NCBI GenBank assembly: GCA_041749335.1
Contig: JBGTBM010000007.1
Coordinates: 85,408-149,407, forward strand
Direction of reading: 5' to 3'
Source: Patescibacteria group bacterium
Lineage (GTDB): Bacteria; Patescibacteriota; JABMPQ01
Length of the DNA: 64,000 nucleotides
Under the pieces are notes generated by a model. It did no database searches. It was not told the origin of the DNA and saw nothing but the letters and a program-made list of their open reading frames with translations. The position numbers and the translations under genes were made by a program. Positions 1 to 61,557 of the stretch are shown piece after piece; position 1 is the first letter of the stretch; the number at the start of each line of letters is the position of its first letter.

Positions 1-975
<975 letters not shown>

Positions 976-3609: not shown

Positions 3610-4202
3610 TGGGAAAAAGTAATAAGCAGAAATCAGAAGCAGTGACCGGATTGGGACTCGGACTGGGCATGCTCACTCTGGCGGACCAAGTCCGCAAGGA
3701 GATGGGTGTCAGCGACGAGCTGTTCCATCGCCTCACGACCGAAGATGGGCGGCAGGACTGGAAGAAGCTTTTCACCGGTATGCAGGAGGATGACGGCAAG
3801 AAGCACGTCATTGACTGCGATGCCAACCCCTTCGTTCCGGAAGGCTGGGAAGTGATTGAGCACCGGAAGGGCGGGGAGTTCCAGTGGGATCCTACCAAGG
3901 TCGAGCTCTATCTCTGCGACGAGCAGAAGAGCGAATGGATCAAAGGAAACGAGCTTAGAAAGAAGCTCGAGGGCAAACCTGTCCTCAACGCCTGCGTACT
4001 GGATTACCTGCACGCGCATCCCGAACTCATCCCCAACGAGTGGAAAGGCAAGTACATCTTCTTTTGGGGGACGATCTATCGCTTCCAGGATGGCCGTCTC
4101 TCTGTCCGTTCTCTCGGCTTGTGCGCTGATCGGTGGTCCCGGCTTGCCTCTTGGCTCGGCGATCGCTGGTACGACTACGATCCGGCTGTCCTCTGCAAGT
4201 AG
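3610..4202 (+). CDS. Hypothetical protein encoded on a GC-rich (~58% GC) segment; putative horizontally acquired gene
   Basis: Strong SD aggagg sits 8 nt upstream of ATG 3610; the ORF-track start at 3582 is in frame, but 3610 has the SD. GC content is far above that of the flanking DNA. The high GC generates long spurious ORFs in other frames (3593..3898-, 3633..4019-, 3856..4215+). No recognisable domain in the protein. Confidence 0.6.
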
Positions 4203-4261
4203 CTCTTGGTGCTAGAAACTATGTTCTTTCCTAACTTTAGATCTTGAACTTTAGACTTTAG

Positions 4262-4462: not shown

Positions 4463-7400
4463 TTGGATATGTTTTTGAATATAAAAACACTAAGAATTAT
4501 CAAGAAAATATTTATCGCCGCTTTTTTTGGCGTTTTTTTATTTCCATTAATGATCAACGCGCAAGGCGGAGTGTGGGAAAATATTTTTCCCGGATCATTA
4601 AGTTTAACGGCAAATAATGAAGAGGTCGAAATCATTGAATACAAGGGAGATATTTATGCCGGGATCGGGGTGGGAGGCGAGTCGCAGGTTTATCGGTATA
4701 TAAGTGGTGATAATTGGGAGCAGGTTAATAAAAATGCGTTTGAAATTGATGTGGAGCGGGGAGTGGCGTCTATGGCCGTGCATAATGGATATTTATATGT
4801 GGGCGATCGGTTTGATTTGGGGGGCGGATTTGTATTGCGCACCAAAGCGCAGGGCGGCCCGCCTTTTACTGATTGGACCCAAGTGAATATCGGCGGGTTT
4901 GGCGATGTTAATAATCAACAAATATCCGACTTAAAATCTTTTGGCAGCTTTCTTTATGCCGCTACTAAAAATTCAATAACCGGTACGGAAATCTGGCGGA
5001 CGCAAGAGGCGGGGGGTCCGCCCTATACCGATTGGACGCAAGTTAATTTAGACGGTTTTTCTGATGTTAATAATGTAGATACGCCATTTTTAGGTATTTA
5101 CGATGGATACTTATATGCTTCTACCGGTAAATCTTCTGGCGCGGGCGAAGTATGGCGTACAAACAATGGAATCAATTGGTCGCAAGTGCAAACCGATGGC
5201 TTTGGGAATTTAAGTAATTATGCTATGTCGTCTTTCGGGTCTTTTGATAATTCACTAATTGTCGGCTCTGCAAATTTAAACGGCGGCAATTTATTTAAAA
5301 CCATAAACGGCACTTTTTGGAGCGTGGTGAATGCTAACGGGTTTGGCGACACCAATAATAAATCCATTTTCCCTTTATTAAGTATCGGGAATTATTTATA
5401 TTTAGGAACGGAAAATAATTCAGCGGGAGCGGAAATTTATCGTACCGGCGATGGAATACATTTTACTCAAATTAATTCATCCGGATTTGGCGACAGTTCT
5501 TATAAAAGTTTTAAAGCTTTGGAAAATAGCGGCAATTTGTTTATTAATGCCAGCAATTCCGGCGGAGGACAAATTTGGGTGGATTATCCGCCGATTCCCG
5601 GTAATTTAACGGCATCTCAAAATATTAATGACCCGAATAAAATTAATATCACTTTTTCCGCGGATGATCAAAATAAAGCGGACAATTTATTAGCGCGGAT
5701 TGAGTATAATATAGGCAGCGGCTGGAAAAAAGCGACCATCATGGTTAATGACGCAGAAACCAGCGCTACTTACGGCGATCCCAAGGTTAATAATTCGCAG
5801 GATTTTCAAATTGGCGATTCTTTGGGATATATCACCGCATCGACAGGATTAAATACCGTTAAGACAGTTTGGGATTACAGCGTGGATGAACCGAATGTCA
5901 ATACCAATAACGCGCAATTAAGGGTAAAGCTGGACGATCAAATTTTGGAAAGTTCAGATATTACCTCCAATCAATTTTCAATAACTTCAGTATTGCCGGT
6001 ATCATTAATAAAATCATATTCTATTAACAGTCCGGCACCGGCGCCGCCTGCCGACAGCGAGGATAATATTTTTATAACTTCCGCCGGATCTTTGATAAAA
6101 AATATTGGCGGCAATATCAATAAACTAACGCCGGGAAATATTTTCAATATTAACTATTTATTTTACGCTTATTTTGTTTTAGCAATTATACTAGTCATTT
6201 TTATTTCTATTTATTGGTTTTTAAAAAAACAATATTATTACCACTCCAAGAATAGATTACGCCTATCATCCGCCGTTTTTTTCTTAATTTTTAATTTGGG
6301 CTTATTGGGAATATTTTCGTTATTGCAGCCGGTTAAATATTTATCGGCTTCTCCTTACGATGTATTTCCGCGGGACATTATTACTTACCGCATTGAATAT
6401 AAAAATTCATCAAATCAAGACATTCATGATTTGTATATATTGGATGAAATTCCTCAATATTCAACGTATGTCGCAGGATCAATGAATTTAAATGGCGCCT
6501 TGATTACAGATGAACTGGATTTTGACTCCGGAGACTTCAATATCTCGAATCAAAATAAAGTAACATTTTATGTTGGATCGGTAGGAGCCAATAATTCCGG
6601 TTATGTTGAATTTAGGGTTCAGGTTAATGCCAATGCTCCCATGGGCGGGGTGATAGAAAATCAGGCCAGAGGAGCTTTTAATCCGGGGAATATCTTAATT
6701 ACCAGCAACATCATTCAAAATTTTGTGGTAGCTACCGGATCAATTTCCGGCAAAGTGTTTTACGATAACAACCGAGACGGCCAGATTAATTCAAATGATT
6801 GGGGCATTGAAAATGCGCAGGTGAAGCTCTATGAAGATCGGGACCATAATGGATTATTGGATACGGCAGTTGATTATTTTGTTGATAGTAAATCAACTGA
6901 CCAGAATGGTGATTATCATTTTACGGGACTTTCAGCGCAATATTATTTATTTTTTGTTGAAAGCTATTCTTTACCGTCGGGATATATTTTGACAACGGGT
7001 AATATTCCGGCCCAAGCGGTGCTTACGGCTAGCGACCAGCAATATCAAAATGCCAATTTTGGTTATTTTAATCAGCCTCAACTGCCGGTTACTCCCGATA
7101 TCCCGGTAATACCTTCCATTCCTTCCACTTTTGAACCTATCCCTGATAATACCCCTGACGATGAGCAAGAAGAGCCGCCAATTATTGAAGAAGAAGACGA
7201 GGAACCGATAGAAATTCCAGATCGAGAGGAGCCAATTGAACCAATAGAACAAGATAAGCCGATAAAAATTGAAACTGAAGACGTTAAGCCGATTGAAATT
7301 GAAAAACCGGATGAGCCCGGAATTGAAAAAAGAAACTGGCGGGATTATTTAACTTTTTCCCTGCCGATTTTTGCCGCTTTATCTTTAGCTAATTTATTTT

Positions 7401-8359
7401 TTAGCGTTCCCTTTTCCGCTTTGGCAAACTTTTTATATTATTTATTCCAGCTAATCACCCAGCCGTTTTTATTATTAACGCGTGAAAGAAAAAGAGAATT
7501 GGGAGCGGTGTATGATTCGTTAACCAAGCTGCCGCTTGACTTAGCGTTAGTCAGATTATTTGACAAAGACACCGGAAAATTAGTGGAAACCAGAGTTACT
7601 AACAGCAGGGGGCAATATTTGTTTGTCGCGGAAAAAAATAAACAATATTATTTATCTGTCCAAAAAGAAAATTATTATTTTCCTTCAAAACTTTTGGAAT
7701 TTAAGCCCGACGACGATGAATTTAAAAACTTATATTATGGTGGAATAATAAGTACGCAGGATCTTGAAAAAAATAATGGCAAAATTTCTAAAAATATTCC
7801 GTTGGATTTGGAGCGGGGGAAATCGTACGCAGCGGGAGTTCGACATAAAACAATTCAAACTGGAATTAATCAAATTGATGATTTGAAGTCAATGGATGAG
7901 GAAGCTAAATTAAATGAATATAAAAAAATTCGCAAACAATTTACCATAAAAAAAATCAGCCAGATAATCGCATATCTGGGGCCTGCCTACGGTTTATTGG
8001 TATTTATTTTAAATCCAAAGCTGATAACATTTATATTTTTAATTATACATATACTTTTATTGCTGCTATTTATGCGGCTGGCGCAGACTCGGGAAAATAA
8101 GTCCTGGGGAAAATCATTTGATTTGAATACTAAAAAGGGATTAGATAATTGCGTAGTTAGATTATTTGACCAGCAATATGGTAAATTGCTATTTACTACT
8201 TTGAGTAAATCTGATGGCCGCTATGGATTTTTGGCGGGGAAAAATAATTATTTAATTTCGGCGTACAGGGATTTTTATCGCATGCCTCAAGAAAAATTGG
8301 AGATACAAGGCCGGGAAAACGGTATAATTAATAAAGATATTGGACTGGAAAAAAAATAG
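4463..8359 (+). CDS. Giant (1298 aa) secreted/membrane-anchored multidomain surface protein
   Basis: N-terminal signal peptide. Five or six ~48-aa propeller-like repeats (GF.D.NN...LY..T.....G.E.WRT). A DUF11-like 'conserved repeat domain' (YRIEYKNSSNQD...YVAGSMNLNG). Three SdrD-B/Cna-B/carboxypeptidase-regulatory-like domains (DGQINSNDWGIENAQVKLYED..., LVRLFDKDTGKLVETRVTNSRGQYLF, VVRLFDQQYGKLLFTTLSKSDGRYGF). An acidic Pro/Glu-rich linker (EEPPIIEEEDEEPIEIPDREEPIEPIE). Several internal hydrophobic helices. Confidence 0.8.
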   Translation: MDMFLNIKTLRIIKKIFIAAFFGVFLFPLMINAQGGVWENIFPGSLSLTANNEEVEIIEYKGDIYAGIGVGGESQVYRYISGDNWEQVNKNAFEIDVERGVASMAVHNGYLYVGDRFDLGGGFVLRTKAQGGPPFTDWTQVNIGGFGDVNNQQISDLKSFGSFLYAATKNSITGTEIWRTQEAGGPPYTDWTQVNLDGFSDVNNVDTPFLGIYDGYLYASTGKSSGAGEVWRTNNGINWSQVQTDGFGNLSNYAMSSFGSFDNSLIVGSANLNGGNLFKTINGTFWSVVNANGFGDTNNKSIFPLLSIGNYLYLGTENNSAGAEIYRTGDGIHFTQINSSGFGDSSYKSFKALENSGNLFINASNSGGGQIWVDYPPIPGNLTASQNINDPNKINITFSADDQNKADNLLARIEYNIGSGWKKATIMVNDAETSATYGDPKVNNSQDFQIGDSLGYITASTGLNTVKTVWDYSVDEPNVNTNNAQLRVKLDDQILESSDITSNQFSITSVLPVSLIKSYSINSPAPAPPADSEDNIFITSAGSLIKNIGGNINKLTPGNIFNINYLFYAYFVLAIILVIFISIYWFLKKQYYYHSKNRLRLSSAVFFLIFNLGLLGIFSLLQPVKYLSASPYDVFPRDIITYRIEYKNSSNQDIHDLYILDEIPQYSTYVAGSMNLNGALITDELDFDSGDFNISNQNKVTFYVGSVGANNSGYVEFRVQVNANAPMGGVIENQARGAFNPGNILITSNIIQNFVVATGSISGKVFYDNNRDGQINSNDWGIENAQVKLYEDRDHNGLLDTAVDYFVDSKSTDQNGDYHFTGLSAQYYLFFVESYSLPSGYILTTGNIPAQAVLTASDQQYQNANFGYFNQPQLPVTPDIPVIPSIPSTFEPIPDNTPDDEQEEPPIIEEEDEEPIEIPDREEPIEPIEQDKPIKIETEDVKPIEIEKPDEPGIEKRNWRDYLTFSLPIFAALSLANLFFSVPFSALANFLYYLFQLITQPFLLLTRERKRELGAVYDSLTKLPLDLALVRLFDKDTGKLVETRVTNSRGQYLFVAEKNKQYYLSVQKENYYFPSKLLEFKPDDDEFKNLYYGGIISTQDLEKNNGKISKNIPLDLERGKSYAAGVRHKTIQTGINQIDDLKSMDEEAKLNEYKKIRKQFTIKKISQIIAYLGPAYGLLVFILNPKLITFIFLIIHILLLLLFMRLAQTRENKSWGKSFDLNTKKGLDNCVVRLFDQQYGKLLFTTLSKSDGRYGFLAGKNNYLISAYRDFYRMPQEKLEIQGRENGIINKDIGLEKK
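4855..5085 (+). repeat. Intragenic tandem DNA repeats (~150-bp period) encoding the propeller-like blades
   Basis: ggcggcccgccttttactgattggacccaagtgaat...gatgttaataat is followed by ggggggtccgccctataccgattggacgcaagttaat...gatgttaataat. Confidence 0.7.
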
Positions 8360-8591: not shown

Positions 8592-11484
<2,893 letters not shown>

Positions 11485-11752
11485 ACTAAAGCTTTTAAAA
11501 TCGCTTATATCGATGGCGGTTTTAAAGGTTTTAAAAATTGACTAGCGATTTATAGTTGTTATTAATATAATGATGAAGAATCAGCGAAGACGCGGTGTAA
11601 ATGATTAATTGAAAAAATGAATTTTAGGAAATTATTTTCTTCAGTAAAATTAATATTGGTTTTATTAATTATTGGAATATTCGTTTCAATTGCATTTTAT
11701 GTGACTTCGCTAAATTCTTTGGCGCACAATATATTTTAACTTGGCTGCAGCA

Positions 11753-11932: not shown

Positions 11933-11961
11933 TTGATATTAGATCTTAAATTTGGTATATT
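11933..11961 (+). promoter_or_regulatory. Sigma70-like promoter for galU
   Basis: TTGATA, a 17-bp spacer, then TATATT, about 40 nt upstream of ATG 12000. Confidence 0.5.
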
Positions 11962-11999: not shown

Positions 12000-12875
12000 A
12001 TGTCTAAAATAAGAAAAGTCGTGATTCCGGTAGCAGGATATGGAACCAGATTTTTACCGGCCACCAAAGCGCAGCCAAAAGAATTAATGCCGGTAGTTGA
12101 TAAGCCGATTGTGCAATATGTAGTGGAGGAGGCAGTAGCTTCGGGCATTACCGATGTTATTTTAATAACCGGTGCGAGTAAACATGCGGTGGAAAATCAT
12201 TTTGACTATAATTACGAGCTTCAGGCCATGCTTAAAAAACAAGGCAAAGAAGAAAAGAGAGCTGAAATTAAAGAAATTGCGGACATGGCTAATTTTATTT
12301 ATGTTCGTCAAAAAGGACCTTATGGCAATGGTACTCCGATTTTATGTGCCAAAGAAGTAGTTGGTGATGAACCCTTTGCGGTATTGTGGGGCGATGAATT
12401 TTTTTATTCTACCGGAAAGCCCAGATTAAAGCAGCTGATTGAAGTTTACGATAAATATACAGATCCGGTTTTAACCGCCAAGGAAACTGATGATGAAGGT
12501 ACGAGGAAATATGGAATATTGGACGCAGTGAAAGTTGAAGATAATGTTTTCCAAGTAAATAAAATAGTAGAGAAGCCGGGTCCGGAAAAAGCGCCGTCGC
12601 ACTTGGCATCATTGGGAGGTTTTGTTTTAACGCCGGATATTTTTGAGGAGCTGGAAAAAACAAAATTGGGAAAAGATAATGAACTTTGGCTGGTGGATGC
12701 CATATTTTCCTTGTCTAAAAAAAGGCCGATTTATGCCTGCGAAGTAGATGCCGACTACTATGACACCGGTTCAAAGATAGGCTGGCTTAAAGCTAATATT
12801 GATATGGGTCTGAAACATCCGGAAGTAAAAGACGACCTAATAAAACTCATAAAAGAAAAAAATAACTTAATATAA
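12000..12875 (+). CDS. galU: UTP--glucose-1-phosphate uridylyltransferase
   Basis: VIPVAGYGTRFLPATKAQPKELMPVVDKPIVQYVVEEA is the classic GalU N-terminal nucleotide-binding signature. Length 291 aa. Confidence 0.88.
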   Translation: MSKIRKVVIPVAGYGTRFLPATKAQPKELMPVVDKPIVQYVVEEAVASGITDVILITGASKHAVENHFDYNYELQAMLKKQGKEEKRAEIKEIADMANFIYVRQKGPYGNGTPILCAKEVVGDEPFAVLWGDEFFYSTGKPRLKQLIEVYDKYTDPVLTAKETDDEGTRKYGILDAVKVEDNVFQVNKIVEKPGPEKAPSHLASLGGFVLTPDIFEELEKTKLGKDNELWLVDAIFSLSKKRPIYACEVDADYYDTGSKIGWLKANIDMGLKHPEVKDDLIKLIKEKNNLI

Positions 12876-12877
12876 AA

Positions 12878-14191
12878 ATGAAAAATAAAAGCAAGTTTTT
12901 CCGCATCGGAGTCATACTGTTTGCCATTTTACTGTTTGCCGGTTTTGGTTGTAAGGATGATAGCCAAAAACAAGACGCGGAGCAATTAGAACCGGTAGAA
13001 ATTGTTATTTGGAGCTTATGGGATGAAAAAGAAGTATATGATCCTTTGTTGAATGAATATACAAAGCTTAATCCCAATATTCGCTTTGATTACAAAAAAT
13101 TTACTTTTGAAGAATATGAACAGGCTGTTGTTAATGCATTGGCCGCTGGCAAGGGCCCGGATATTTGGTTGATGCACCATACTTGGCTGCCAAAACATCT
13201 GGATAAATTAGCTTCTATGCCGGAAGGCAAGATGTCAGCTTTTGAATATTCCGATACCTTTGTCGATGTGGCATATAATGATTTTGTTATCGACAATCAA
13301 ATATATGGAATTCCGCTTTCAGTCGATACGCTGGCAATGTATTACAATAAAGATTTATTTAATTCAGCAGCCATTACTAATCCTCCGGCCAATTGGCAAG
13401 AATTCAAGGATGATGCCAGGGCTTTAACCAAAATTAATGAGTATGGCGATATTCAGCAGGCCGGGGCGGCCATCGGTACCGCTAGAAATATAAACCGAGC
13501 AGTAGATATTCTATACTTGCTGATGATCCAAAACGGTACGGAAATGACTGATGAAAACAATACTAATGTTTTATTTAATCAGTCTGCTACGGCCGCGGAC
13601 GGAGAAGAATATATTCCCGGATTGGACGCTTTGATTTTTTATACCGATTTTGCCAATCCTAAAAAAACCATCTATACCTGGAATCCCACCATGCACTATA
13701 ACACTGACGCTTTTATTGAAGAGAGCGTAGCAATAATGTTTAATTATTCTTATCAAAATGAGGTAATTAGAGGCAAGGCTCCTCGCATGAATTATGGCAT
13801 TGCGCCCGCTCCGCAAATTGAGGGATCGTCCAAGAGATATGATTTTGCCAATTATTGGGGATTTACGGTAGCTAATAATTCAAAAAATCAGGAAATCGCC
13901 TGGGATGTGCTTACCTTTTTAGGCAAGCAAGAAAATGTTAAAGCATATACCGAAACCACTAAAAGGCCGGCTTCTCGTAGAGATGTTTTGAACGAACAAT
14001 TGCAAGATCCTGACCTAAAGGTTTTTGCCGAGCAAGCATTATCGGCCCAGAGCTGGCATCAGGTTGATCCCGGGCAAATTGAAGCGATTATGGCCGACAT
14101 GATCGAAAAAGTCGCTTTAGGAGAGATTGAAGCCGAAGAAGCCTTAAATGACGCAGTCAATCGAGTGGATGTTTTAATGAGTAATCAATAA
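12878..14191 (+). CDS. Lipoprotein, extracellular solute-binding protein (ABC sugar-transporter SBP family 1-like); no cognate permease nearby
   Basis: Signal peptide with a Cys (LFAGFGCKDD). Size and composition (aromatic- and Asn-rich, ~437 aa) fit family 1. The call is heuristic. Confidence 0.55.
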   Translation: MKNKSKFFRIGVILFAILLFAGFGCKDDSQKQDAEQLEPVEIVIWSLWDEKEVYDPLLNEYTKLNPNIRFDYKKFTFEEYEQAVVNALAAGKGPDIWLMHHTWLPKHLDKLASMPEGKMSAFEYSDTFVDVAYNDFVIDNQIYGIPLSVDTLAMYYNKDLFNSAAITNPPANWQEFKDDARALTKINEYGDIQQAGAAIGTARNINRAVDILYLLMIQNGTEMTDENNTNVLFNQSATAADGEEYIPGLDALIFYTDFANPKKTIYTWNPTMHYNTDAFIEESVAIMFNYSYQNEVIRGKAPRMNYGIAPAPQIEGSSKRYDFANYWGFTVANNSKNQEIAWDVLTFLGKQENVKAYTETTKRPASRRDVLNEQLQDPDLKVFAEQALSAQSWHQVDPGQIEAIMADMIEKVALGEIEAEEALNDAVNRVDVLMSNQ

Positions 14192-14196
14192 TAGAT

Positions 14197-14940
14197 ATGA
14201 TTAAGTTGGAAAAAATAATAATGATATTGTTAATATTTGGATTATTTGCTGTATTTCAATTTCCAAATATTACATATGCAGAAGATGAAAAAATTTTAGA
14301 CAAAGGAGCATATTGTGGATTTTATCAACCTTTTTATGTTACGCCAACCATGAAATCTAAAACATTGGAAGGTTATAAATGTATAGAAGGTACAGTTTGT
14401 GGCTACGCAAGCGTCTGCGATGAGCTGCCCGCAAGTGCTACTGAGGCGGGATATAAGGGCAAACCAAGATTTGCATGTATACCTCCCGAGTGGGTTCAAC
14501 AAAGACAGGATCAATTAACTGCCTGTATTCAAGGAGGTCCAGAAAAGGCTGCCGAAGAAGCAAAAAAAACTAAAGCAGACAATGCTTGTCTTGCTCAAGC
14601 TACCTCGACAGAAAGGGGGATTTTTACTAGAGACCTATCACCAAAATGTTTTGCTTGCGGGGAATGTACTCAAAAAGATGTTTTCCAGGAATTTATTAAT
14701 ATTTTTACCTTTATTCTACAAATTTCCGGAAGTTTAGCTGTATTAGTCATAGTAATTGGGGGAATTATGTACATGACAGCGGCCGGCGATCAGCAAAAAA
14801 CACAAAAGGCCAAAGGAGCTTTGACAGCGGCTATTATAGGTCTTATAATAGTTCTAGTGGCATTCACCTTGATAACATTTGTGATGAATTTATTGGGGTA
14901 TTCAAATGCCGGTTCATGGTACAGTCCCAGTTTAAAATAA
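14197..14940 (+). CDS. Secreted Cys-rich protein with a C-terminal TrbC/VirB2-like (T4SS-pilin-like) two-helix domain; paralog 1 of 4
   Basis: N-terminal signal/TM segment. About 140 aa containing 10 Cys (YCGF, KCIEGTVCGYASVCDE, FACIPP, TACIQ, NACLAQ, PKCFACGEC). C-terminal LAVLVIVIGGIMYMTAAGDQQKTQKAKGALTAAIIGLIIVLVAFTLITFV is shared with the three downstream paralogs. Confidence 0.55.
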   Translation: MIKLEKIIMILLIFGLFAVFQFPNITYAEDEKILDKGAYCGFYQPFYVTPTMKSKTLEGYKCIEGTVCGYASVCDELPASATEAGYKGKPRFACIPPEWVQQRQDQLTACIQGGPEKAAEEAKKTKADNACLAQATSTERGIFTRDLSPKCFACGECTQKDVFQEFINIFTFILQISGSLAVLVIVIGGIMYMTAAGDQQKTQKAKGALTAAIIGLIIVLVAFTLITFVMNLLGYSNAGSWYSPSLK

Positions 14941-14944
14941 AAAT

Positions 14945-15358
14945 ATGTATAAAAATAAAATTATCGCTTTAGTAATTTTGATCATTTTTTCTAGTTTAAT
15001 TGTTTCCAATTTTGTATTGGCGCAAACTACTCCCAACGCTCCCAATATCCCATCAACATCAAATACTCCTAGCACCACCACGGGCACAAAAACATCAACT
15101 GCGACATTGACTAATCCTCTGTCGGTTAGTACGCCTGGGGCATTGATCGGAAATATTATTAAAACGTTAATGGGTGTCGTGGGGGTTGTGGCAGTTTTAA
15201 TGATTGTCTGGGGAGGTGTAATGTATATGACTTCGGCCGGCAGTGATGAAAAAATCGGCACAGCCAAGAAAATAATAACCGGAGCAATTATCGGCCTAGT
15301 GATATCAATATTGGCATATGTAATAATTGATTTTGTTATTAAAGCAATCGGAGGATAA
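14945..15358 (+). CDS. TrbC/VirB2-like pilin-like small protein (paralog 2); Thr/Ser/Pro-rich variable region
   Basis: Signal peptide; NAPNIPSTSNTPSTTTGTKTSTATLTNP; conserved C-terminal VGVVAVLMIVWGGVMYMTSAGSDEKIGTAKKIITGAIIGLVISILAYVIIDFV. Confidence 0.55.
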   Translation: MYKNKIIALVILIIFSSLIVSNFVLAQTTPNAPNIPSTSNTPSTTTGTKTSTATLTNPLSVSTPGALIGNIIKTLMGVVGVVAVLMIVWGGVMYMTSAGSDEKIGTAKKIITGAIIGLVISILAYVIIDFVIKAIGG

Positions 15359-15363
15359 ATATT

Positions 15364-15765
15364 ATGAAAACAAACTTGATAAATTTATTAGTGGTAATAC
15401 TAGCCTCATTATTTATTATATTTCCCATTGCACAGTTTTGCTATGCGGGCACTACTACCACTACCCCTTCAACTACCACCGGCTCTGACAAATACGGCCT
15501 TGGCGATGTAAAGAGTAGCGGACTGGTTACCAAAGATGCTACCGAAGTGGTCGGCAGTATTATTCAAACAATTATCGGGATCGTCGGTGTAATATTGGTA
15601 GTAGTACTTATTTATGGCGGAGTGCTCTATATGACTTCTGGAGGCAGTGAAGAGAAAACAAAAACTGCGAAAAAAGCGATAACCTATGGAATTGTCGGAA
15701 TAACTATTATTGCCCTGGCATTTGCAGTTACTCGCTTTGTGCTTGATGCGTTAATTAAACAATAG
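15364..15765 (+). CDS. TrbC/VirB2-like pilin-like small protein (paralog 3)
   Basis: Signal peptide; TTTTTPSTTTGS; conserved C-terminal VGVILVVVLIYGGVLYMTSGGSEEKTKTAKKAITYGIVGITIIALAFAVTRFV. Confidence 0.55.
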   Translation: MKTNLINLLVVILASLFIIFPIAQFCYAGTTTTTPSTTTGSDKYGLGDVKSSGLVTKDATEVVGSIIQTIIGIVGVILVVVLIYGGVLYMTSGGSEEKTKTAKKAITYGIVGITIIALAFAVTRFVLDALIKQ

Positions 15766-15796
15766 GATTAATAAAAATAAAATATATTGAAGGGAG

Positions 15797-16195
15797 GTGA
15801 TATCAGTGAAAAAATACATAAAGTTAATTTCAGCAAGCCTGGTAGCCGTTTTTGCGTTGGCGTTGGTTGTTCCTGCTGTAGCAGGTGCAGCCGCAACTCC
15901 TCCTACCAGTCCGACTGAATTACTAAATCAAACCGCAAATAAGTCAGGACAAACCCAAACTAGATCATTAACGGATATAATCGGTAACATTATTCAATGG
16001 ATTTTAGGCCTAGTTGGTGTGGTTTTGCTAATTATGTTTATTTATGGCGGTGTGCTTTATGCAACATCTGCCGGCAATGAAGATAAAGTAGAAACAGGCA
16101 AAAAGGTGATGCTATATGCTATTATCGGAGTGGTTATTATCGCTTTGGCGTTTGCCTTAACCAGATATGTAATCGATGCCTTATTTCAAGCGTAA
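15797..16195 (+). CDS. TrbC/VirB2-like pilin-like small protein (paralog 4)
   Basis: Signal peptide (AAATPPTSPTELLNQ); conserved C-terminal VGVVLLIMFIYGGVLYATSAGNEDKVETGKKVMLYAIIGVVIIALAFALTRYV. SD gaagggaggtg lies upstream. Confidence 0.55.
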   Translation: MISVKKYIKLISASLVAVFALALVVPAVAGAAATPPTSPTELLNQTANKSGQTQTRSLTDIIGNIIQWILGLVGVVLLIMFIYGGVLYATSAGNEDKVETGKKVMLYAIIGVVIIALAFALTRYVIDALFQA

Positions 16196-16210
16196 AAATT
16201 TAACAATTAT

Positions 16211-16245
16211 AAAACAGGCAATGTATACAGCCTGTTTTATTATTT
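16211..16245. terminator. Bidirectional terminator between the convergent pilin-like array and the GT-C gene
   Basis: aaaacaggc-(10 nt loop)-gcctgtttt with A/T runs on both sides. Confidence 0.55.
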
Positions 16246-17760
16246 TAGTTTATATATTAAAATGTTTTCATTTTCATAAATTGTTTCGAATCTGAAGTCT
16301 TTTTTAGCATAATCGACAAATTCAGAAAAATCTTTATTTATAAAAACATAGTCAGCCTTAAAGTCTTGTTTAATAATTTGATAAGAGTTCTCTAGCGATT
16401 GTTGAGAAAATAATTGATGCCACTTTTGATATAAATTATAATTATATTCTTTCATGAAATTAGGGTCCAGACCGGCAATGTAATAATTTTGATCATTGTA
16501 AAATAACAATTGCGGTGATTCGCTCCAGTCCAAATGATAAACAATTTCATTAGCCGGAATATTTTCTTTCATCCAAATACTGGCTTTCTTGATATTTGTT
16601 TTATCCTCTTTGTCATTATTGAGATTAAAATATACCGCTTGAAAATTATAAATGGCTGCGCTTGTAAGTAAAAAAATAATTAATAATTTTGAAGTATATT
16701 TATTTTTAAATAAAAATAATTTACCGATATATTTATTAATAGCAATATGATTATTTGTATATAAGTAAGCGGCCAGCAGGATAATTAGCGGAGCGCTATA
16801 TTCAATCATTTTTCTTACAACGATTGTCAGTATAAAAAAAATTACTGCGTTTAAAAATAAAAATAATGTTATTTTGCCAATTTTTCTATGTTTAATTTTG
16901 GTTAATAAAATTATAAAAATAGAAATGACAAAGAGCGCGATAATTATCAAAGAAGACGAGATTAAAAAACGTGGAGCAGACATATACCATTCAATTCCTA
17001 CCGGCATATTTGAAAAAGGGTCTTTTAAGGCAACTTGGTATAAATGAAAAAAAAGATGGTAAATATTTTTAGGAAAATATGGATTTAAAATTATGGCGAT
17101 AACAACTCCGGTAAGATAACAAAAAATCGGGTAAAATAAATCGGAGATTAATTTGGTATTTTTGGTTTTAAATAAATAGTAAACTTCAATCAGAGATTTA
17201 ATAGCAATGACAATGCCTAAAATAATAAATCCATCAAAGAGCCAAGCATAAAAAATAGTAAGCGGTATTAAATATATATAATTATTTTTAATCAGCAGAT
17301 AAATTCCTATTAGTAAAAGAATTAAAGCCAAGCTTTGCGCTCGCAGTAAGTTTAGCCGAAAAATAAAAAGCGAAGAGGAAAAAAGCAACAGCAGAGTCCA
17401 AAAGTGCGGAAACTTGATGTTAAGTTTTTTCAAAATAACAAAAAAAGCAATAAAAAAAGCGGCTGAAAAAATGATAGTAGCAATTTTAGCAGCTAAAAAT
17501 GGTTCTAATAATTTAAAAAAGGGCAGCAGTAATATATGAAAAAGAAGGTGATGCTCAACGAAATTATCATTTAATATGGTGTATTGCAGCCAGGGAAAAA
17601 TTTCAACCAACTTGCCGCTATCTAAAATAAGTTGAGCCATTTTGGCGTGATAATAGACATCGGTACATAAAAACTCATAAGCTTTAAATTGAATAATAGC
17701 TATAAATGAAATTACAGTTGTGATTAATATGATGTACTTTAAATAAAATTTTATACGCAT
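16240..17760 (-). CDS. Large polytopic membrane protein, putative GT-C-fold glycosyltransferase (PMT_2/ArnT/oligosaccharyltransferase-like)
   Basis: 506 aa with ~12 TM helices in the N-terminal 400 aa and a soluble C-terminal ~100 aa domain, an architecture typical of GT-C enzymes. No unambiguous catalytic motif was identified by eye. Confidence 0.35.
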   Translation of the reverse strand: MRIKFYLKYIILITTVISFIAIIQFKAYEFLCTDVYYHAKMAQLILDSGKLVEIFPWLQYTILNDNFVEHHLLFHILLLPFFKLLEPFLAAKIATIIFSAAFFIAFFVILKKLNIKFPHFWTLLLLFSSSLFIFRLNLLRAQSLALILLLIGIYLLIKNNYIYLIPLTIFYAWLFDGFIILGIVIAIKSLIEVYYLFKTKNTKLISDLFYPIFCYLTGVVIAIILNPYFPKNIYHLFFHLYQVALKDPFSNMPVGIEWYMSAPRFLISSSLIIIALFVISIFIILLTKIKHRKIGKITLFLFLNAVIFFILTIVVRKMIEYSAPLIILLAAYLYTNNHIAINKYIGKLFLFKNKYTSKLLIIFLLTSAAIYNFQAVYFNLNNDKEDKTNIKKASIWMKENIPANEIVYHLDWSESPQLLFYNDQNYYIAGLDPNFMKEYNYNLYQKWHQLFSQQSLENSYQIIKQDFKADYVFINKDFSEFVDYAKKDFRFETIYENENILIYKLK

Positions 17761-17800: not shown

Positions 17801-17836
17801 AAAAAAGCGGGATGTAGTTAATTGATAACATCCCGC
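17801..17836 (-). terminator. Rho-independent terminator of the minus-strand GC-rich operon
   Basis: On the minus strand: gcgggatgt-(12 nt)-acatcccgc followed by T6. Confidence 0.65.
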
Positions 17837-17869
17837 TATGAAAAAAATGAACGAAAGAACGTGGAAGGA

Positions 17870-18295
17870 CTAGAGAGGAGGATCAACGGCGGCGAAGTTG
17901 TAGAAGGGGTCCCTGCCTTTGTTCTGTTTGGGCTGACGAGAGGAGGGCTGGTAGGATTTCTGCTTTTTCTGCTGGGGGTAGGCGCGTCGCTGGTACTCAT
18001 GATACCGGCGGTTGCCTTCCATCTCTCTCGCGTGCATCCGCTGGATTGCCTCTTCACTCTCCTGTGTGAGCTTGTCTTGGCACCCTTTGATCGGTGTGAA
18101 GACGCAGGTGTAGAAAAGCACTCCAAAAACCAGTGGTACGAAAGTCCAGAAGAACAGCGGCTCCATCTTTTCAAAGTTGATAGTGAGACTGCGAGGAGCA
18201 GGCGGACTGTTTGAAACAGCAGCTTGCTTGCTTCGCGCCCGAAAAACCATAGCTGCCACGAAAATGATGCAGCCAACCAGGAATATGTATCCCAT
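17870..18295 (-). CDS. Membrane protein co-transcribed with the SPFH gene (possible NfeD/YqiJ-like partner)
   Basis: 141 aa. Two N-terminal TM helices, then a charged Gln/Arg/Lys-rich tail. GC-rich codon usage like the upstream SPFH gene. The overlapping + strand ORFs are judged spurious. Confidence 0.5.
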   Translation of the reverse strand: MGYIFLVGCIIFVAAMVFRARSKQAAVSNSPPAPRSLTINFEKMEPLFFWTFVPLVFGVLFYTCVFTPIKGCQDKLTQESEEAIQRMHAREMEGNRRYHEYQRRAYPQQKKQKSYQPSSRQPKQNKGRDPFYNFAAVDPPL

Positions 18296-18310
18296 GGGGC
18301 TTGCTCCTTT

Positions 18311-19234
18311 CTATTTTTTCTTACCCGGGCCCTTCATGGCGTCGGCCATAATGTGGGCGATCGGAATAGACGCAGCGAGGCCGGAGGCGAGATCATCGGA
18401 AACGATGTAAACGCCGTCGCCCTTGGCCATTTCTTCACGACCTTCAATGCCGCGAATGGCGGCGCCTTCCGCCGGAGTCCAGTGCTTTTTGCCAAGGATG
18501 GAGCTATAGACTTCATCGACACGTTCTTTCTCCGCCTGGGCATCCATACGCTTGGCATCGGCTTTGGCGGCCGCGACTTTGCGGACCTTGATCGCCTCGG
18601 CGTCCGCTTCGAGTGAAGCAGATTCCGGCTTGCTGATCGCGGCTTCCAGTTCTTGTGGAAGCTCCAGGTTCGTAAGTAGTATGCTTACGTTCCGAATTTG
18701 CGATTCAACAAGAATGTTGTGGCGATCATTTTTTAATAGATTATCCAGACGATCTTTTATATCAGTATTGAATTCTTTACGATCATGGTAAAGTCTCTCC
18801 CAGTCAAACTCTTGGCAAACATCCTCTACCAAATCCACGACCGGCTCCATAAAAAGACTGTGGAGATATTCGGATTCAAGTGAATTAATAATTTTGACTG
18901 TCTTAAGCAGCAAGGGAAGTTCCATAGGGCGCATGCGCGTGGGGTACCGGAAGCGTAAGGACAGATGAACAGTAACGTTGACCGCCGAGTGGCCCTTGTC
19001 CTTCTTTGTCAATATGCGAGTATTGAACTCTAATTCCTGCTTGGATGTTGGGAAAACGATCAAATCGCAGAGGGGAAAGGGGATGAAAATCAGACCCGAT
19101 TCTACCGCTTTTTCCGGCTTGCCGAAGGTGGTTACCACCCCGGCCTCTGCCGCCTTAACGACGCGCACAGACTTATACAGCCAAAAACCGATCAGAACCG
19201 CAAGTCCCAGAATAAAAGCCGTTGCTTCGGACAT
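18311..19234 (-). CDS. SPFH/band-7 (stomatin/prohibitin/HflKC-like) domain membrane protein
   Basis: N-terminal TM helix followed by VVKAAEAGVVTTFGKPEKAV..., the canonical start of the SPFH domain. A long coiled-coil Ala/Glu/Lys-rich C-terminal region (EADAEAIKVRKVAAAKADAKRMDAQAEKERV). Confidence 0.75.
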   Translation of the reverse strand: MSEATAFILGLAVLIGFWLYKSVRVVKAAEAGVVTTFGKPEKAVESGLIFIPFPLCDLIVFPTSKQELEFNTRILTKKDKGHSAVNVTVHLSLRFRYPTRMRPMELPLLLKTVKIINSLESEYLHSLFMEPVVDLVEDVCQEFDWERLYHDRKEFNTDIKDRLDNLLKNDRHNILVESQIRNVSILLTNLELPQELEAAISKPESASLEADAEAIKVRKVAAAKADAKRMDAQAEKERVDEVYSSILGKKHWTPAEGAAIRGIEGREEMAKGDGVYIVSDDLASGLAASIPIAHIMADAMKGPGKKK

Positions 19235-26331: not shown

Positions 26332-27231
26332 ATGATAGATATTAGGCATTTAAGCCATACTTACAAATTAAGAGGAATCAAGGCCATAGCTTTGCATGAT
26401 ATTTCTTTGAAAATCAAAAAAGGCGAAGTTTTTGGGCTTTTGGGCACAAATGGGGCCGGTAAAAGTACTTTAATTAAAATTTTAACAACCTTGCTATATC
26501 CGACGGCGGGAGAGGTGTTTATTAATGATGTAGATATCAAGAAGCGGCCGCAGGATATCAGGAGCCGCTTGGGAGTGGTTTTTGGCCAGCAGATGATCTA
26601 TACGGGACTGACCGGTCGGGATAACCTACGTTTTTTTGGCGATATATATGATGTTCAGAATTTAGAGGAAAAAATTGATAATTTAGCCAAATTTTTTGAA
26701 CTGGAGCAGTTGGATTATTTGGTAGAGGGGTATTCCAGCGGGCTGAAGATGAAATTAGCCATTATGCGCGGGCTGATTAATGATCCGGATATTTTATTTC
26801 TAGACGAACCGACTTTAGGCTTAGATCCCAATATGCAGCAAAAAATTCGCAAGAAAATCAAAGAATTGCAGAAAATGGGCAAAACCATAATTTTAACCAC
26901 CCACTATATGCTGGAGGCGGAGGATTTGTGCGATCGTATCGGCATTTTGAATAAAGGTTCGGTGGTAGCCATAGATACTCCTTTGGCCTTGCGGAAAAAA
27001 ATGCCCGGAAAAAATCTTTTAGAGGTAAAGTTCAAAAATCCCCAAGTTTTCGATAAATTCAGAAAAGACTATATTTTAACCAATGATCCTACGTTGATTA
27101 TGATTCCTATAACAGACTCCGATCATTTAAATAGCGTTTTAAAAGAACTATTGGAAAGTGGCTGTTATATTGAAGATATTAAATTGATAGAACCATCCTT
27201 GGATAAAGTATTTTCGTATTTTACCGAATAA
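26332..27231 (+). CDS. ABC transporter ATP-binding protein (Wzt/TagH-like polysaccharide exporter ATPase)
   Basis: Walker A GLLGTNGAGKST, ABC signature LSGGLKMKL-like (YSSGLKMKLAI), Walker B ILFLDEPTLGLD. Confidence 0.85.
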   Translation: MIDIRHLSHTYKLRGIKAIALHDISLKIKKGEVFGLLGTNGAGKSTLIKILTTLLYPTAGEVFINDVDIKKRPQDIRSRLGVVFGQQMIYTGLTGRDNLRFFGDIYDVQNLEEKIDNLAKFFELEQLDYLVEGYSSGLKMKLAIMRGLINDPDILFLDEPTLGLDPNMQQKIRKKIKELQKMGKTIILTTHYMLEAEDLCDRIGILNKGSVVAIDTPLALRKKMPGKNLLEVKFKNPQVFDKFRKDYILTNDPTLIMIPITDSDHLNSVLKELLESGCYIEDIKLIEPSLDKVFSYFTE

Positions 27232-27237
27232 AAAAAT

Positions 27238-28056
27238 ATGACCCTGCAGCATATTAAAAATAAAATAAAAACAATTCAAGCTTATGTAGTTAAAGATATT
27301 AAGCTTACTTTTCGTTTTCGTATGTCATTGGTCAATAAGTTTTTTGCTCCAATTTTAACGATGTTGAGCTTTATGGTAACTTATTCCGCGATCTTTTTTG
27401 GCGCGGGTACTGAAGATCTCGGCTTTGTTGACAGCAGCAACTATGTGGTTTATCTTTTGACCGGGTTTTTGGCTTATTCGGTTTTTCGCTTGGCCTGGGG
27501 AATTACCTCATTAAGAGGAGAAGTTAGCTCATTGACTTTATATGGCATGTTGATGGCTCCCGGATCGCGAGTATATATTTTGGCGGGCAAGGCAGTCAGG
27601 GCTTTGGCGGAAATATTTATTTCGGCCGGCGGATTTGCGGCGATGATAATATTTTTGAATCCCGCGATTGATGCAAAAAATTTAATCATCGGTTTGGGCG
27701 CTATTATTTTGCTTTTTATTATTTTTATCAGCCTGGATTTTATGGTTACCGCTATTGATTTAGTCAATCCCGGCATTGCAGGAGTGATTACCAGCTATGT
27801 TCCCAAGGGATTTTTACTGATTGGCTGCGTTTATTTTCCGGTGGATGTTATTCCGGAAATATTCCGTCCGCTGGTTTACATTAATCCGCTCTATCACGCT
27901 GTGAATCTTTTCCGTTCGGGTTTTATGGCGGCCGATTTGCAATTTGGCGTGATGATGCCGATGATCTATCTTTTGGTTCTGGCCTTAATAATGCCAATTC
28001 TATCGCTATACATATTTGATCTGGTATTTAAAAAATGGAATATTAGAGGATTATAA
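27238..28056 (+). CDS. ABC-2 type transporter permease (Wzm/TagG-like)
   Basis: 272 aa with 6 TM segments, immediately downstream of the ATPase. ABC-2 family architecture. Confidence 0.7.
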   Translation: MTLQHIKNKIKTIQAYVVKDIKLTFRFRMSLVNKFFAPILTMLSFMVTYSAIFFGAGTEDLGFVDSSNYVVYLLTGFLAYSVFRLAWGITSLRGEVSSLTLYGMLMAPGSRVYILAGKAVRALAEIFISAGGFAAMIIFLNPAIDAKNLIIGLGAIILLFIIFISLDFMVTAIDLVNPGIAGVITSYVPKGFLLIGCVYFPVDVIPEIFRPLVYINPLYHAVNLFRSGFMAADLQFGVMMPMIYLLVLALIMPILSLYIFDLVFKKWNIRGL

Positions 28057-29198: not shown

Positions 29199-29340
29199 GT
29201 TACAAGGACACAAGATACAAGGATACAAAAATATTATAAATAAAGTCAAATAGTTGATTGTGGTTTAAATAATTTGACATAAAATAATTCAAGGAGGAAT
29301 GCATCAAGTAACAAGTGACAAGAAACAAGATACAAAAGTT
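29199..29340 (+). repeat. Heptad/octad (N)ACAAG direct-repeat arrays (two blocks)
   Basis: gttacaag gacacaag atacaagg atacaaaa (29199-29232) and caagtaa caagtga caagaaa caagata caaaagt (29305-29340). The second block overlaps the 5' end of the four-helix-bundle ORF. Confidence 0.7.
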
Positions 29341-29688
29341 CATCAATTTGATTTAGAGGATAGAACCACGGAATTTGCTAAAAGAGTGGTGAGATTATGT
29401 AGATTCATTCCAAAAGATTCTATCAATAATCGCTTGTCGGGACAGGCTGTAGGATCAGCCGGATCGATCGGGGCAAATTATCGAGAAGCAAATGATGCAC
29501 TGGGAAAAAAAGATTTCACGCATCGCTTACGAATAGCGCGCAAAGAAGCGAAAGAAGCAATTCATTGGTTAGACTTAATTGAAGAAGCTAATCCATATAT
29601 ATCTCACAGAATGAAAGAACTGAAACAAGAAGCAATCGAATTAAAGAATATTTTATCAGCTATAATTATTAACACGGAAAAGAAATAA
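29299..29688 (+). CDS. Four-helix-bundle protein (TIGR02436 / '23S rRNA intervening-sequence protein' family)
   Basis: LSGQAVGSAGSIGANYREANDALGKKDFTHRLRIARKEAKEAIHWLDL matches the family signature (Q..RSA.SI.ANIAEG ... A.GS..E). Confidence 0.7.
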   Translation: MHQVTSDKKQDTKVHQFDLEDRTTEFAKRVVRLCRFIPKDSINNRLSGQAVGSAGSIGANYREANDALGKKDFTHRLRIARKEAKEAIHWLDLIEEANPYISHRMKELKQEAIELKNILSAIIINTEKK

Positions 29689-29742
29689 TCTATAATCAAT
29701 ATATTTGGAATTTAAAAATTGAATTTTGAAATTTGTTTGTTG

Positions 29743-29776
29743 CTTGTATCTTGTAACTTGTTTCTTGTATAATACA
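29743..29776 (+). repeat. Inverted copy of the heptad array (CTTGTNN x4) ending in TATAAT
   Basis: cttgtat cttgtaa cttgttt cttgtat aat. This is the reverse complement of the upstream ACAAG arrays. Confidence 0.7.
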
Positions 29777-29779
29777 TTT

Positions 29780-30472
29780 ATGAACTACAAAACTCTAAAA
29801 CGCATCCTCGATATCTTATTAGCGCTGACAATGCTTTTGCTGCTTTGGCCTCTAATGCTGCTAGTCGCTTTGATTATTAAGATTGATTCTCGGGGTCCGG
29901 TGATATACAAACAAGAGCGATATAACGGTATAGATCGAAAGTTTGTTATGTATAAATTTAGGACTATGCAAGTGGGAGCAAGGCAGAAAATGGTAGAAGA
30001 CCACGAAAACCCCAAAAAATTAATTACCGGAGTCGGGAAAATTTTAAGAGAACTACATATTGATGAGCTTCTCCAGCTTTATAATATTTTGAAAGGCGAT
30101 ATTAGCTTTATCGGGGTGCGACCGCAGCAGGAAGCGGAGTATCAGTGGATGTTAAAATGTTCTAAGGACTGGCCGGATCGGTTCAAGGGAAGCGTGGGGG
30201 CGGTAAGTATTGAGAGGCTGATATGTATTTACCCTACTATTCAAGAAAAATTTGTTAAAAAATTGAAAAACGCGGATTATTTATTAGACAAGCAAAGAAG
30301 AGAGGATTACGATTTGTATTATGCAAAAAACGAATGTCTATATAACGATGTGATTATTTTAATCTATTTAGCGAGAACTATTTTAGGTAAGATTTATTGT
30401 GCATTTATTACAAAGCAATATTGCGAGTATGATAGTTGTGATATAAAATGGAAAAATCGGAAGTTGTATTAA
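29780..30472 (+). CDS. Initiating phosphoglycosyltransferase (bacterial sugar transferase, PglC/WbaP C-terminal domain family)
   Basis: LLLWPLMLLVALIIKIDSRGPVIYKQERYNGIDRKFVMYKFRTM ... LQLYNILKGDISFIGVRPQ. Start chosen at ATG 29780 (MNYKTLKR...). The ORF-track start at 29726 would translate the repeat array. Confidence 0.85.
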   Translation: MNYKTLKRILDILLALTMLLLLWPLMLLVALIIKIDSRGPVIYKQERYNGIDRKFVMYKFRTMQVGARQKMVEDHENPKKLITGVGKILRELHIDELLQLYNILKGDISFIGVRPQQEAEYQWMLKCSKDWPDRFKGSVGAVSIERLICIYPTIQEKFVKKLKNADYLLDKQRREDYDLYYAKNECLYNDVIILIYLARTILGKIYCAFITKQYCEYDSCDIKWKNRKLY

Positions 30473-61555: not shown

Positions 61556-61557
61556 CA

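Follow-up and report, generated by a model that had tools for sequence, protein, structure and literature searches.

The closest described counterparts of the genes considered here are the putative type IV secretion system (T4SS) pilins of Patescibacteria. In Southlakia epibionticum, a series of predicted pilins lies inside an essential T4SS cluster, which encodes six proteins of the Pfam family PF18895 (SEML1_0014-0019) (Wang 2023, PMC10633639). A survey of 3,035 Patescibacteria assemblies searched for PF18895 and PF04956 found VirB4 in 2,417 of them (Quinonero-Coronel 2025, PMC12102498). Pilins were present in 1,948 VirB4-positive assemblies and near virB4 in only 1,135, and 441 arrays of 2-11 pilins each were recorded, with a mean identity of 25%. 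A 2025 review highlighted these pilin arrays. The T4SS is essential for epibiotic growth in the sole species tested, and reviews leave the role of the system and of its unusual pilins unexplained. Here we analyze a tandem array of four PF18895 open reading frames (ORFs), ORF1 to ORF4 or pilins 1 to 4, in a Patescibacteria group bacterium of the GTDB class JABMPQ01 (GenBank assembly GCA_041749335.1, contig JBGTBM010000007.1). We refer to the whole 64,000-nucleotide stretch analyzed (contig positions 85,408 to 149,407, forward strand) as the window. We consider it probable that these genes encode VirB2-like pilins of a Patescibacteria T4SS whose machinery is encoded elsewhere, and that the pilins are expressed together with a dedicated sugar-binding lipoprotein and probably carry glycans.

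As a type of locus, the array is neither new nor lineage-specific, and is ordinary for Patescibacteria. The published survey counted as an array at least two PF18895- or PF04956-positive genes, in tandem or one gene apart, in a Patescibacteria genome (PMC12102498). The window has four consecutive PF18895-positive genes whose closest relatives are in metagenome-assembled genomes of Patescibacteria/Parcubacteria. Given that survey's 441 arrays and the number of assemblies whose pilins lie away from virB4, diversified tandem arrays distant from the machinery were already documented. Divergence within the array is also typical, as pilins 2-4 are 27-30% identical to pilin 1, compared with the published Patescibacteria mean.

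Membership in PF18895 (T4SS_pilin; model of 71 positions, gathering threshold 26.6 bits) was clear for all four proteins. Pilin 1 scored 50.4 bits (E = 2.3e-13), pilin 2 46.0 bits (E = 5.7e-12), pilin 3 45.3 bits (E = 9e-12), and pilin 4 56.6 bits (E = 2.7e-15), with matches spanning model positions 2-5 to 70-71. As every score is well above the cutoff, the array is not a product of chance, and the four genes are members of the PF18895 VirB2-like pilin family. The NCBIfam model NF045849 (Mbov_0395 family pilin-like conjugal transfer protein, from a Mycoplasma integrative and conjugative element (ICE); cutoff 40 bits) gave 45.8 bits for both pilin 3 and pilin 4, while pilin 1 (35.5 bits) and pilin 2 (35.6 bits) fell below its cutoff. 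The preliminary description of this DNA had called the proteins TrbC/VirB2-like. PF18895 and NF045849 uphold the T4SS-pilin part of that statement, while membership in PF04956 (TrbC/VirB2) remains below threshold. Public homologues are Patescibacteria/Parcubacteria proteins to which NCBI already gives the name 'pilin' or 'MMCAP2_0565 family pilin-like conjugal transfer protein', several with precomputed PF04956 matches. When 1.84 billion cluster representatives were searched with a family profile, 91,839 relatives were found at E <= 1e-3. The module is common to several Patescibacteria lineages, including Parcubacteria, Doudnabacteria, and class JABMPQ01.

Coordinates, a hydropathy scan, and an alignment of the four paralogues all agree with the layout given in the preliminary description, namely four tandem same-strand ORFs, each with a signal, a variable middle region, and a conserved C-terminal module. 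Each ORF has three hydrophobic segments, comprising the N-terminal signal and two C-terminal transmembrane helices with a short loop between them. Conservation is concentrated in the module, which holds 14 of the 15 invariant columns of the alignment and includes GG(V/I)(M/L)Y(M/A)T(S/A)(A/G)G...K. In the AlphaFold model of pilin 4, the module is predicted to form a hairpin of two helices (residues 58-89 and 95-130; predicted local distance difference test (pLDDT) 83-89) with the conserved YATSAGNE motif at its turn. The corresponding turn motif, YxTSxGxxxK, is near-invariant across the PF18895-type family. The interhelix polar loop is 10-15 residues long in all four proteins. It had been characterized as charged and Lys-rich, which fits the net basic loops of pilins 1-3 (3-4 Lys + Arg versus 1-2 Asp + Glu) but not the slightly acidic loop of pilin 4 (2 Lys + Arg versus 3 Asp + Glu). 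The longest frame of pilin 4 opens with GTG; its true start is probably the downstream ATG, because gene callers and orthologues begin there.

The four proteins differ most in the exposed segment between the signal and the first helix. In pilin 1 this segment is 139 amino acids (aa) long with 10 Cys, in line with the Cys-rich domain reported for the first paralogue. In pilins 2-4 it is 24-37 aa long and 45-64% Ser+Thr+Pro, as expected from the earlier account of Ser/Thr/Pro-rich, low-complexity middle regions. The segment of pilin 2 (37 aa) reaches 64% Ser/Thr/Pro and that of pilin 3 is Thr-rich.

This design resembles Agrobacterium VirB2 and RP4 TrbC, which are likewise small, carry a long signal peptide, and have a short polar loop connecting two hydrophobic helices. 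The differences lie in context and in the exposed parts. The virB2 genes that we fetched lie between virB1 and virB3, whereas the window array has a solute-binding protein (SBP) gene and a GT-C glycosyltransferase gene as neighbors, with no VirB1, VirB3, or VirB4. VirB2 and TrbC belong to Gram-negative bacteria, whereas the window host is monoderm, and the window proteins carry long Ser/Thr/Pro- or Cys-rich N-terminal extensions. In comparison, the Mycoplasma ICE proteins Mbov_0395/MMCAP2_0565 share with the array the NF045849 matches of pilins 3 and 4 and an origin in wall-poor or monoderm, genome-reduced bacteria. Pilins 1 and 2 remain below that cutoff, however, and in place of the relaxase, integrase, VirB4, and TraG of such an element, all absent from the window, there is an array with an SBP.

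Other filament classes were rejected. The N-termini (MIKLEKII..., MYKNKII..., MKTNLIN..., and MKKYIKL... for pilins 1 to 4) lack the G/(F,M)xxxE prepilin peptidase motif of type IV pilus pilins, and no PilB, PilC, PilD, or T2SSE ATPase is present in the window. Sortase pili were dismissed as the four proteins have no LPXTG motif (TIGR01167 match, E = 0.42) and no sortase was found in the window. A similarity to DctQ, the small subunit of tripartite ATP-independent periplasmic (TRAP) transporters (E ~0.003), was judged to be noise from transmembrane composition.

Several arrangements of the module elsewhere in the family are of separate interest. Many family members are predicted from gene calls to be single polypeptides with 2-17 pilin modules (P0120-P0268), among them a protein of 1,775 aa with 17 matched pilin stretches (P0129). 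One locus (L021, 9836-20206) encodes a 678-aa protein combining a pilin module with Big_5 and, in addition, a 2,777-aa ORF with a pilin module. On another contig (P0028), a lone PF18895 pilin lies directly 3' of a prolipoprotein diacylglyceryl transferase (LGT).

The array appears to be the tail of a conserved galU-SBP-pilin operon, as judged from gene spacing and recurrence. In the window, a galU-like gene ends 2 nucleotides (nt) before the SBP gene, and the intergenic gaps from galU through SBP to pilins 1, 2, and 3 are 2-5 nt (Table 1). The SBP is of the sugar/maltodextrin type, and its closest solved relatives are maltose/sugar-binding proteins. Its hydrophobic, lipoprotein-like N-terminus leads into a G-C pair that is nearly invariant, and many of its aromatic residues are invariant as well. 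Neither a MalFG-type permease nor a cognate ATPase was found near the SBP, in the window or in related loci. We surveyed metagenome contigs for loci chosen by the SBP alone, each with at least 600 bp downstream, and found a pilin gene less than 400 bp from the SBP stop in 64 of 65 (median gap 7 nt). Where the flank was long enough, these loci contained arrays of 1-7 pilin genes. A second survey of GTDB genomes, seeded with pilin 4, recovered the order galU, SBP, and 4-6 pilins in 10 of 13 loci. In all ten a galU orthologue (E = 1e-82 to 1e-157) lies directly 5' of the SBP, as it does in one further locus (L108). Six of the ten also have the GT-C membrane protein 3' of the array, immediately after it in L011-L013 and farther away in L014-L016. 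The order SBP, four pilins, and a convergent membrane protein of ~500 aa recurs in a close relative (L002) and in a distant one (L003), where the SBP and membrane protein are 36% and 32% identical to those of the window and the other neighbors differ.

Two side observations concern this module. Signal peptidase II genes occur a few kb from it in L003 and L108. In the distant locus L010, which has nine pilins and two GT-C copies, a eukaryotic-type UDP-glucose pyrophosphorylase (UDPGP; PF01704), unrelated to galU, takes the place of galU next to the SBP (17371-17509, 15913-17289). It looks as if one UDP-sugar enzyme had been exchanged for a non-orthologous one while the link to the module was maintained.

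Two promoter-like sites may bear on expression of the predicted operon. The first, 5' of galU and just past a terminator-like hairpin 3' of the 5S ribosomal RNA (rRNA) gene, is a candidate operon start. The evidence for it is weak, because promoter-like sites in this region are no more frequent than in shuffled sequence. The second, situated 95 nt 5' of pilin 2 and still inside the 3' end of the pilin 1 gene, matches the sigma-70 consensus at 12 of 12 positions. L002 retains both hexamers, and L012 retains 11 of the 12 positions. It is possibly an internal promoter that would raise expression of the short pilins, or else a by-product of conserved codons; since these bases are also part of conserved second-helix codons, coding constraint could explain it.

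The four paralogues are ancient and position-specific, as far as orthology can tell. Pilin 4 had as its best match the last pilin in every array examined, and the best match of pilin 1 was the position-1 pilin in most other arrays. These first and last positions have orthologues even in arrays whose SBP is only 47-61% identical to that of the window. Because orthologues are position-specific, the paralogues must be long-standing, differentiated genes and not a variable family in recent expansion, and a reading of them as recently diversifying copies is not supported. Pilin 1 has a juxtamembrane motif, RGIFTxxLSxxCxxCGxC, and a tail ending GSWYSPSLK. First-position pilins in general share RGIFTxGLSxxCxxCGxCxxxD and the tail GSW(Y/F)xP(S/T)(F/L), and keep both while their ectodomains vary from ~0 to 400 aa and from 4 to 44 Cys.

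Rates of divergence were compared using L002, a 551-kb contig. The pilins are 41-80% identical to those of L002 and the SBP is 81% identical. Within pilin 1, identity is 26% for the ectodomain and 79% for the C-terminal module; for pilin 2, the N-terminal part and the module are 42% and 88% identical, respectively. For pilin 4, the whole protein shows 80% identity and its module 93%. For pilins 1-3, the exposed parts are 26-42% identical compared with 61-86% for the flanking genes, so that the rapid evolution proposed for the middle regions is borne out against this one relative. Together, the orthology and the rate differences fit a major subunit accompanied by accessory and tip subunits whose exposed parts evolve fast. 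The likely major subunit is pilin 4, the short and most conserved member at the end of the array. Pilins 2 and 3 are likely accessory subunits with fast-evolving Ser/Thr/Pro-rich exposed tips, while pilin 1 is likely a minor or tip subunit whose hypervariable, Cys-rich ectodomain would serve host-cell contact.

The gene that converges on pilin 4 across a 44-nt gap encodes a 506-aa membrane protein with no Pfam match and no match among PDB sequences. Its AlphaFold model identifies it as a predicted STT3-like glycosyltransferase of the GT-C fold. The best PDB matches found by Foldseek were STT3/oligosaccharyltransferase (OST) catalytic subunits (TM 0.65-0.72, E = 1e-9 to 1e-10), followed by PglB, DPY19, and ArnT (TM 0.57 to PglB and ArnT). 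Invariant residues include D33 and H37 near the protein start, R134, NPYFP, and EW. The position of the gene is kept in L002, L003, L010-L016, and six metagenome loci, mostly 44-170 bp 3' of the last pilin on the opposite strand. The distance grows to 1.9-3.6 kb, with other ORFs between, in L014-L016, and in L010 the gene is beside the array. Acidobacteria, Nitrospirae, and DPANN archaea have members of this family that are not accompanied by pilins. Relatives are also present in L009 and in L008, where the gene adjoins MptA_B and DUF2079 genes. In S. epibionticum, SEML1_0023, structurally assigned as STT3/PglB/AglB, converges on a lone pilin, SEML1_0024, and both genes are non-essential (PMC10633639).

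Glycosylation of the Ser/Thr/Pro-rich exposed segments is suggested by the GT-C fold, its conserved placement, the S. epibionticum pairing, and the adjacent galU or UDPGP. From this context and the structure model, galU and the GT-C protein probably glycosylate the exposed pilin segments. The arrangement resembles the Campylobacter PglB and the Neisseria and Pseudomonas pilin loci in that an OST-like membrane enzyme adjoins filament subunits with Ser/Thr-rich exposed segments. It is also like pilin glycosylation loci in that the window enzyme is flanked by genes for sugar nucleotides and lipid-linked glycans, namely galU, two Glycos_transf_4 genes, and many glycosyltransferases. In contrast to those loci, the window enzyme belongs to a separate GT-C family that lacks a Pfam model, and its action on pilins is predicted. 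Known pilin O-glycosylation, moreover, involves Wzy_C-type enzymes and type IV pilins rather than VirB2-like pilins.

The closest parallel remains the S. epibionticum array. Both are chromosomal tandem arrays of divergent PF18895 paralogues built from a signal, a variable segment, and two helices, and both have Hsp20 and GT-C genes nearby. Among the related loci, 20 have an Hsp20 gene downstream, encoded on the opposite strand. In S. epibionticum, the secretion-linked array is likewise flanked by Hsp20 and by a GT-C gene beside a pilin, which suggests that the two arrays are equivalent. They differ in three respects. The window array is neither in nor near a T4SS cluster; it is led by an SBP and galU, whereas the S. 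epibionticum annotation table contains no PF01547 protein; and its first pilin has a Cys-rich ectodomain.

The assembly machinery is presumably encoded elsewhere in the genome, as a relative of the window host indirectly suggests. The closest GTDB locus with galU, SBP, four pilins, and GT-C (L011) has a pilin 4 orthologue that is 72% identical, and its genome, GCA_013202585.1 (class JABMPQ01), is listed as VirB4 'Yes' (Table S1 of PMC12102498). The 8.1-kb contig that carries L011 has no VirB4 itself.

A model for the array can be outlined mainly from sequence features. Sec would export each pilin, after which the signal peptide would be removed. The mature pilin would lie in the membrane as a hairpin of helices, its two ends outside and the short polar, Lys-containing loop inside. 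This membrane pool could then supply the subunits for a pilus or conduit, presumably assembled by a Patescibacteria-type (monoderm, MPF-FATA-like) T4SS apparatus encoded elsewhere. The array would be co-transcribed with the SBP and, in the clade of the window, with galU, to both of which it is linked in the observed gene order. The SBP could be a dedicated partner that either helps in assembly or serves as a receptor for cargo or a host glycan.

Several observations weigh against assigning the array to a T4SS pilus. PF04956 (gathering threshold 27.9 bits) gave only sub-threshold scores for pilin 4 (21.5 bits, E = 2.7e-4) and pilin 1 (14.8 bits), and did not match pilins 2 and 3. A profile of 26 family members, run against PDB sequences to find solved VirB2/TraA, had no match. 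By hhalign, alignment to four annotated plasmid VirB2/TrbC proteins (Agrobacterium-type) reached a probability of 4% (E = 0.01, 37 columns), with the best register covering the segment preceding and inside the first helix. Fold searches returned only generic helical hairpins. Given how weak this classical TrbC/VirB2 link is, we assign the proteins to PF18895 and to the published Patescibacteria arrays, not to PF04956. As to genomic context, the window, which covers 64 kb of a 219-kb contig, has 50 other non-nested ORFs with a length of 110 aa or more, and in Pfam scans none of these proved to be VirB4, VirB6, VirD4, a relaxase, or a type IV pilus ATPase, in agreement with the preliminary description. 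These scans left out overlapping or nested ORFs at 3633-4019, 3856-4215, 9616-9963 (inside the 23S rRNA gene), 14932-15267, 17822-18214, 17836-18276, 18224-18616, 58962-59354, and 60128-60556, and a partly overlapping 126-aa ORF at 61300-61680. Recurrent neighbors within ~9 kb in ~50 related loci likewise include no T4SS gene and are mainly housekeeping genes (GyrA, FtsH, S1, S-adenosylmethionine (SAM) methyltransferase, VanW, and Hsp20; also PrsW). In S. epibionticum, the pilin adjacent to the GT-C gene is non-essential and lies apart from the secretion cluster. Finally, we know of no pilus of PF18895 proteins reported for any organism in the literature searched, and to our knowledge a near-obligate SBP partner has no counterpart in any characterized T4SS.

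Two ATPase candidates came up among the related loci. A Walker-A protein of ~607 aa that recurs 5' of the operon was suspected to be VirB4 and proved to be FtsH. In two loci only, a PilB-type T2SSE ATPase lies 4.5-6.5 kb 3' of the array (L020, 15756-17423; L074, 16573-18327), probably a coincidental proximity to a type IV pilus locus.

The strength of the SBP linkage suggests a different function, which we regard as unlikely but as the main rival. The SBP could dock on an oligomer of two-helix subunits to form a T4SS-independent membrane complex that captures or senses host glycan for uptake, signaling, or adhesion, in which case 'T4SS pilin' would be a misleading family name for this subgroup. 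Consistent with this, the SBP precedes the pilin array in nearly all SBP-selected loci (64/65, median gap 7 nt) and in most pilin-selected loci (10/13), and it is far more conserved than the pilins, with invariant aromatics as in sugar-binding proteins. Neither a T4SS ATPase nor a MalFG-type permease accompanies the SBP in the window or related loci, and the VirB2 homology is statistically weak. However, PF18895 proteins also compose arrays inside T4SS clusters, as in S. epibionticum, where they are essential, and no transporter or sensor made of two-helix subunits with cleaved signal peptides is known. Arrays in which three to seven paralogues have become differentiated, the first of them variable and tip-like, resemble pili built of major and minor subunits, and the closest reference genome is VirB4-positive.

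It is more improbable still that the C-terminal module is a mere membrane anchor and that the proteins coat the cell as independent mucin-like or Cys-rich surface-display proteins that do not polymerize. For an anchor the module is over-conserved, being 88-93% identical in pilins 2 and 4 to the relative and carrying the near-invariant YxTSxGxxxK. The last pilin, nearly without an ectodomain, is nevertheless the most conserved, and in many genomes the family is linked to T4SS clusters. These points outweigh the return of generic helical hairpins by structure searches, the fusion of the module in many members to large ectodomains or domains such as Big_5, and the polypeptides of 2-17 modules, which are hard to square with a simple pilin. 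The reading in the preliminary description, a novel, lineage-specific, and antigenically variable filament or anchor system, is very improbable: the low-complexity, Ser/Thr/Pro-rich exposed segments do diverge far more than the neighboring genes (26-42% versus 61-86% identity), but the family is huge, already annotated and published, spread over Parcubacteria, Doudnabacteria, class JABMPQ01, and others, and made of old, differentiated paralogues with position-specific orthologues.

For the pilin arrays considered as T4SS subunits, the SBP and the GT-C/galU links are the parts worth pursuing and could help explain the role of the pilus. We found no description of an SBP-pilin array pairing in the literature searched. 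We propose tentatively, as a possibility somewhat short of even, that in many Patescibacteria outside the Saccharibacteria the VirB2-like pilin arrays have the SBP as a dedicated, near-obligate partner, joined in part of them by galU or UDPGP and an STT3-like GT-C protein. If true, the Patescibacteria T4SS pilus would be a glycosylated, receptor-equipped organelle coupled to carbohydrate-ligand binding, with host-glycan recognition or the capture of host-derived material as its function. This would provide a first concrete biochemical handle on an essential T4SS. The context suggests testable ideas concerning the SBP ligand, pilin glycosylation, and an SBP-pilin interaction. In addition, the operon offers a simple genomic marker for pilin loci far from virB4.

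Table 1. Features of the pilin locus and of the surrounding window (positions in the 64,000-nucleotide window).
Feature	Position	Strand	Length or basis
Promoter-like site, TTGATA-17-TATATT, extended TG	11933-11961	+	consensus scan
galU-like sugar-1-phosphate nucleotidyltransferase	12000-12875	+	291 aa; Pfam NTP_transferase, E = 1.8e-25
Solute-binding lipoprotein, sugar/maltodextrin type (SBP_bac_1)	12878-14191	+	437 aa; PF01547, 95.9 bits, E = 6e-27
Pilin 1 (ORF1)	14197-14940	+	247 aa
Sigma-70 consensus, TTGACA-17-TATAAT	14821-14849	+	12/12 consensus matches
Pilin 2 (ORF2)	14945-15358	+	137 aa
Pilin 3 (ORF3)	15364-15765	+	133 aa
Pilin 4 (ORF4)	15797-16195	+	132 aa from GTG; 129 aa from ATG at 15806
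Predicted GT-C-fold membrane glycosyltransferase	16240-17760	-	506 aa; AlphaFold pLDDT 93.8 and Foldseek
16S rRNA gene	1-973		
SdrD_B/CarboxypepD_reg surface protein	4463-8359		1,298 aa
23S rRNA gene	8594-11486		
GC-richer region	17822-18616	both	overlapping ORFs
ORF in GC-richer region	17870-18295	-	141 aa
Glycan-biosynthesis island	19900-58700		
Wzm/Wzt-like ABC-2 exporter	26332-28056		
Bac_transf	29726-30472		
23S rRNA intervening-sequence protein	29299-29688		PF05635

Beyond the GT-C gene, much of the window is occupied by a glycan-biosynthesis island with ~20 glycosyltransferases, two Glycos_transf_4 genes, and several methyltransferases. The island also encodes an exporter, a Bac_transf protein, three radical-SAM proteins, and two asparagine synthases. 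Its guanine-plus-cytosine (GC) content drops from ~0.40 to 0.24-0.33 past ~28 kb, which suggests that part of the island may be horizontally acquired or hypervariable. The island includes the gene of a 23S rRNA intervening-sequence protein, far from the 23S rRNA gene, with an equivalent in L002.

At the other end, the rRNA region extends from position 1 to ~11.9 kb, with 16S and 23S genes 7.6 kb apart. Between them lie tRNA-Ile, tRNA-Ala, and tRNA-Val genes and protein-coding genes, one of which encodes a large surface protein. In L002, a GIY-YIG ORF lies in the interval between the surface-protein gene and galU, which in the window holds the 23S gene. Past the GT-C gene is a short GC-richer region (0.44) with overlapping ORFs on both strands. 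A 141-aa ORF within it has no Pfam match and is 41% identical to its counterpart in L002.

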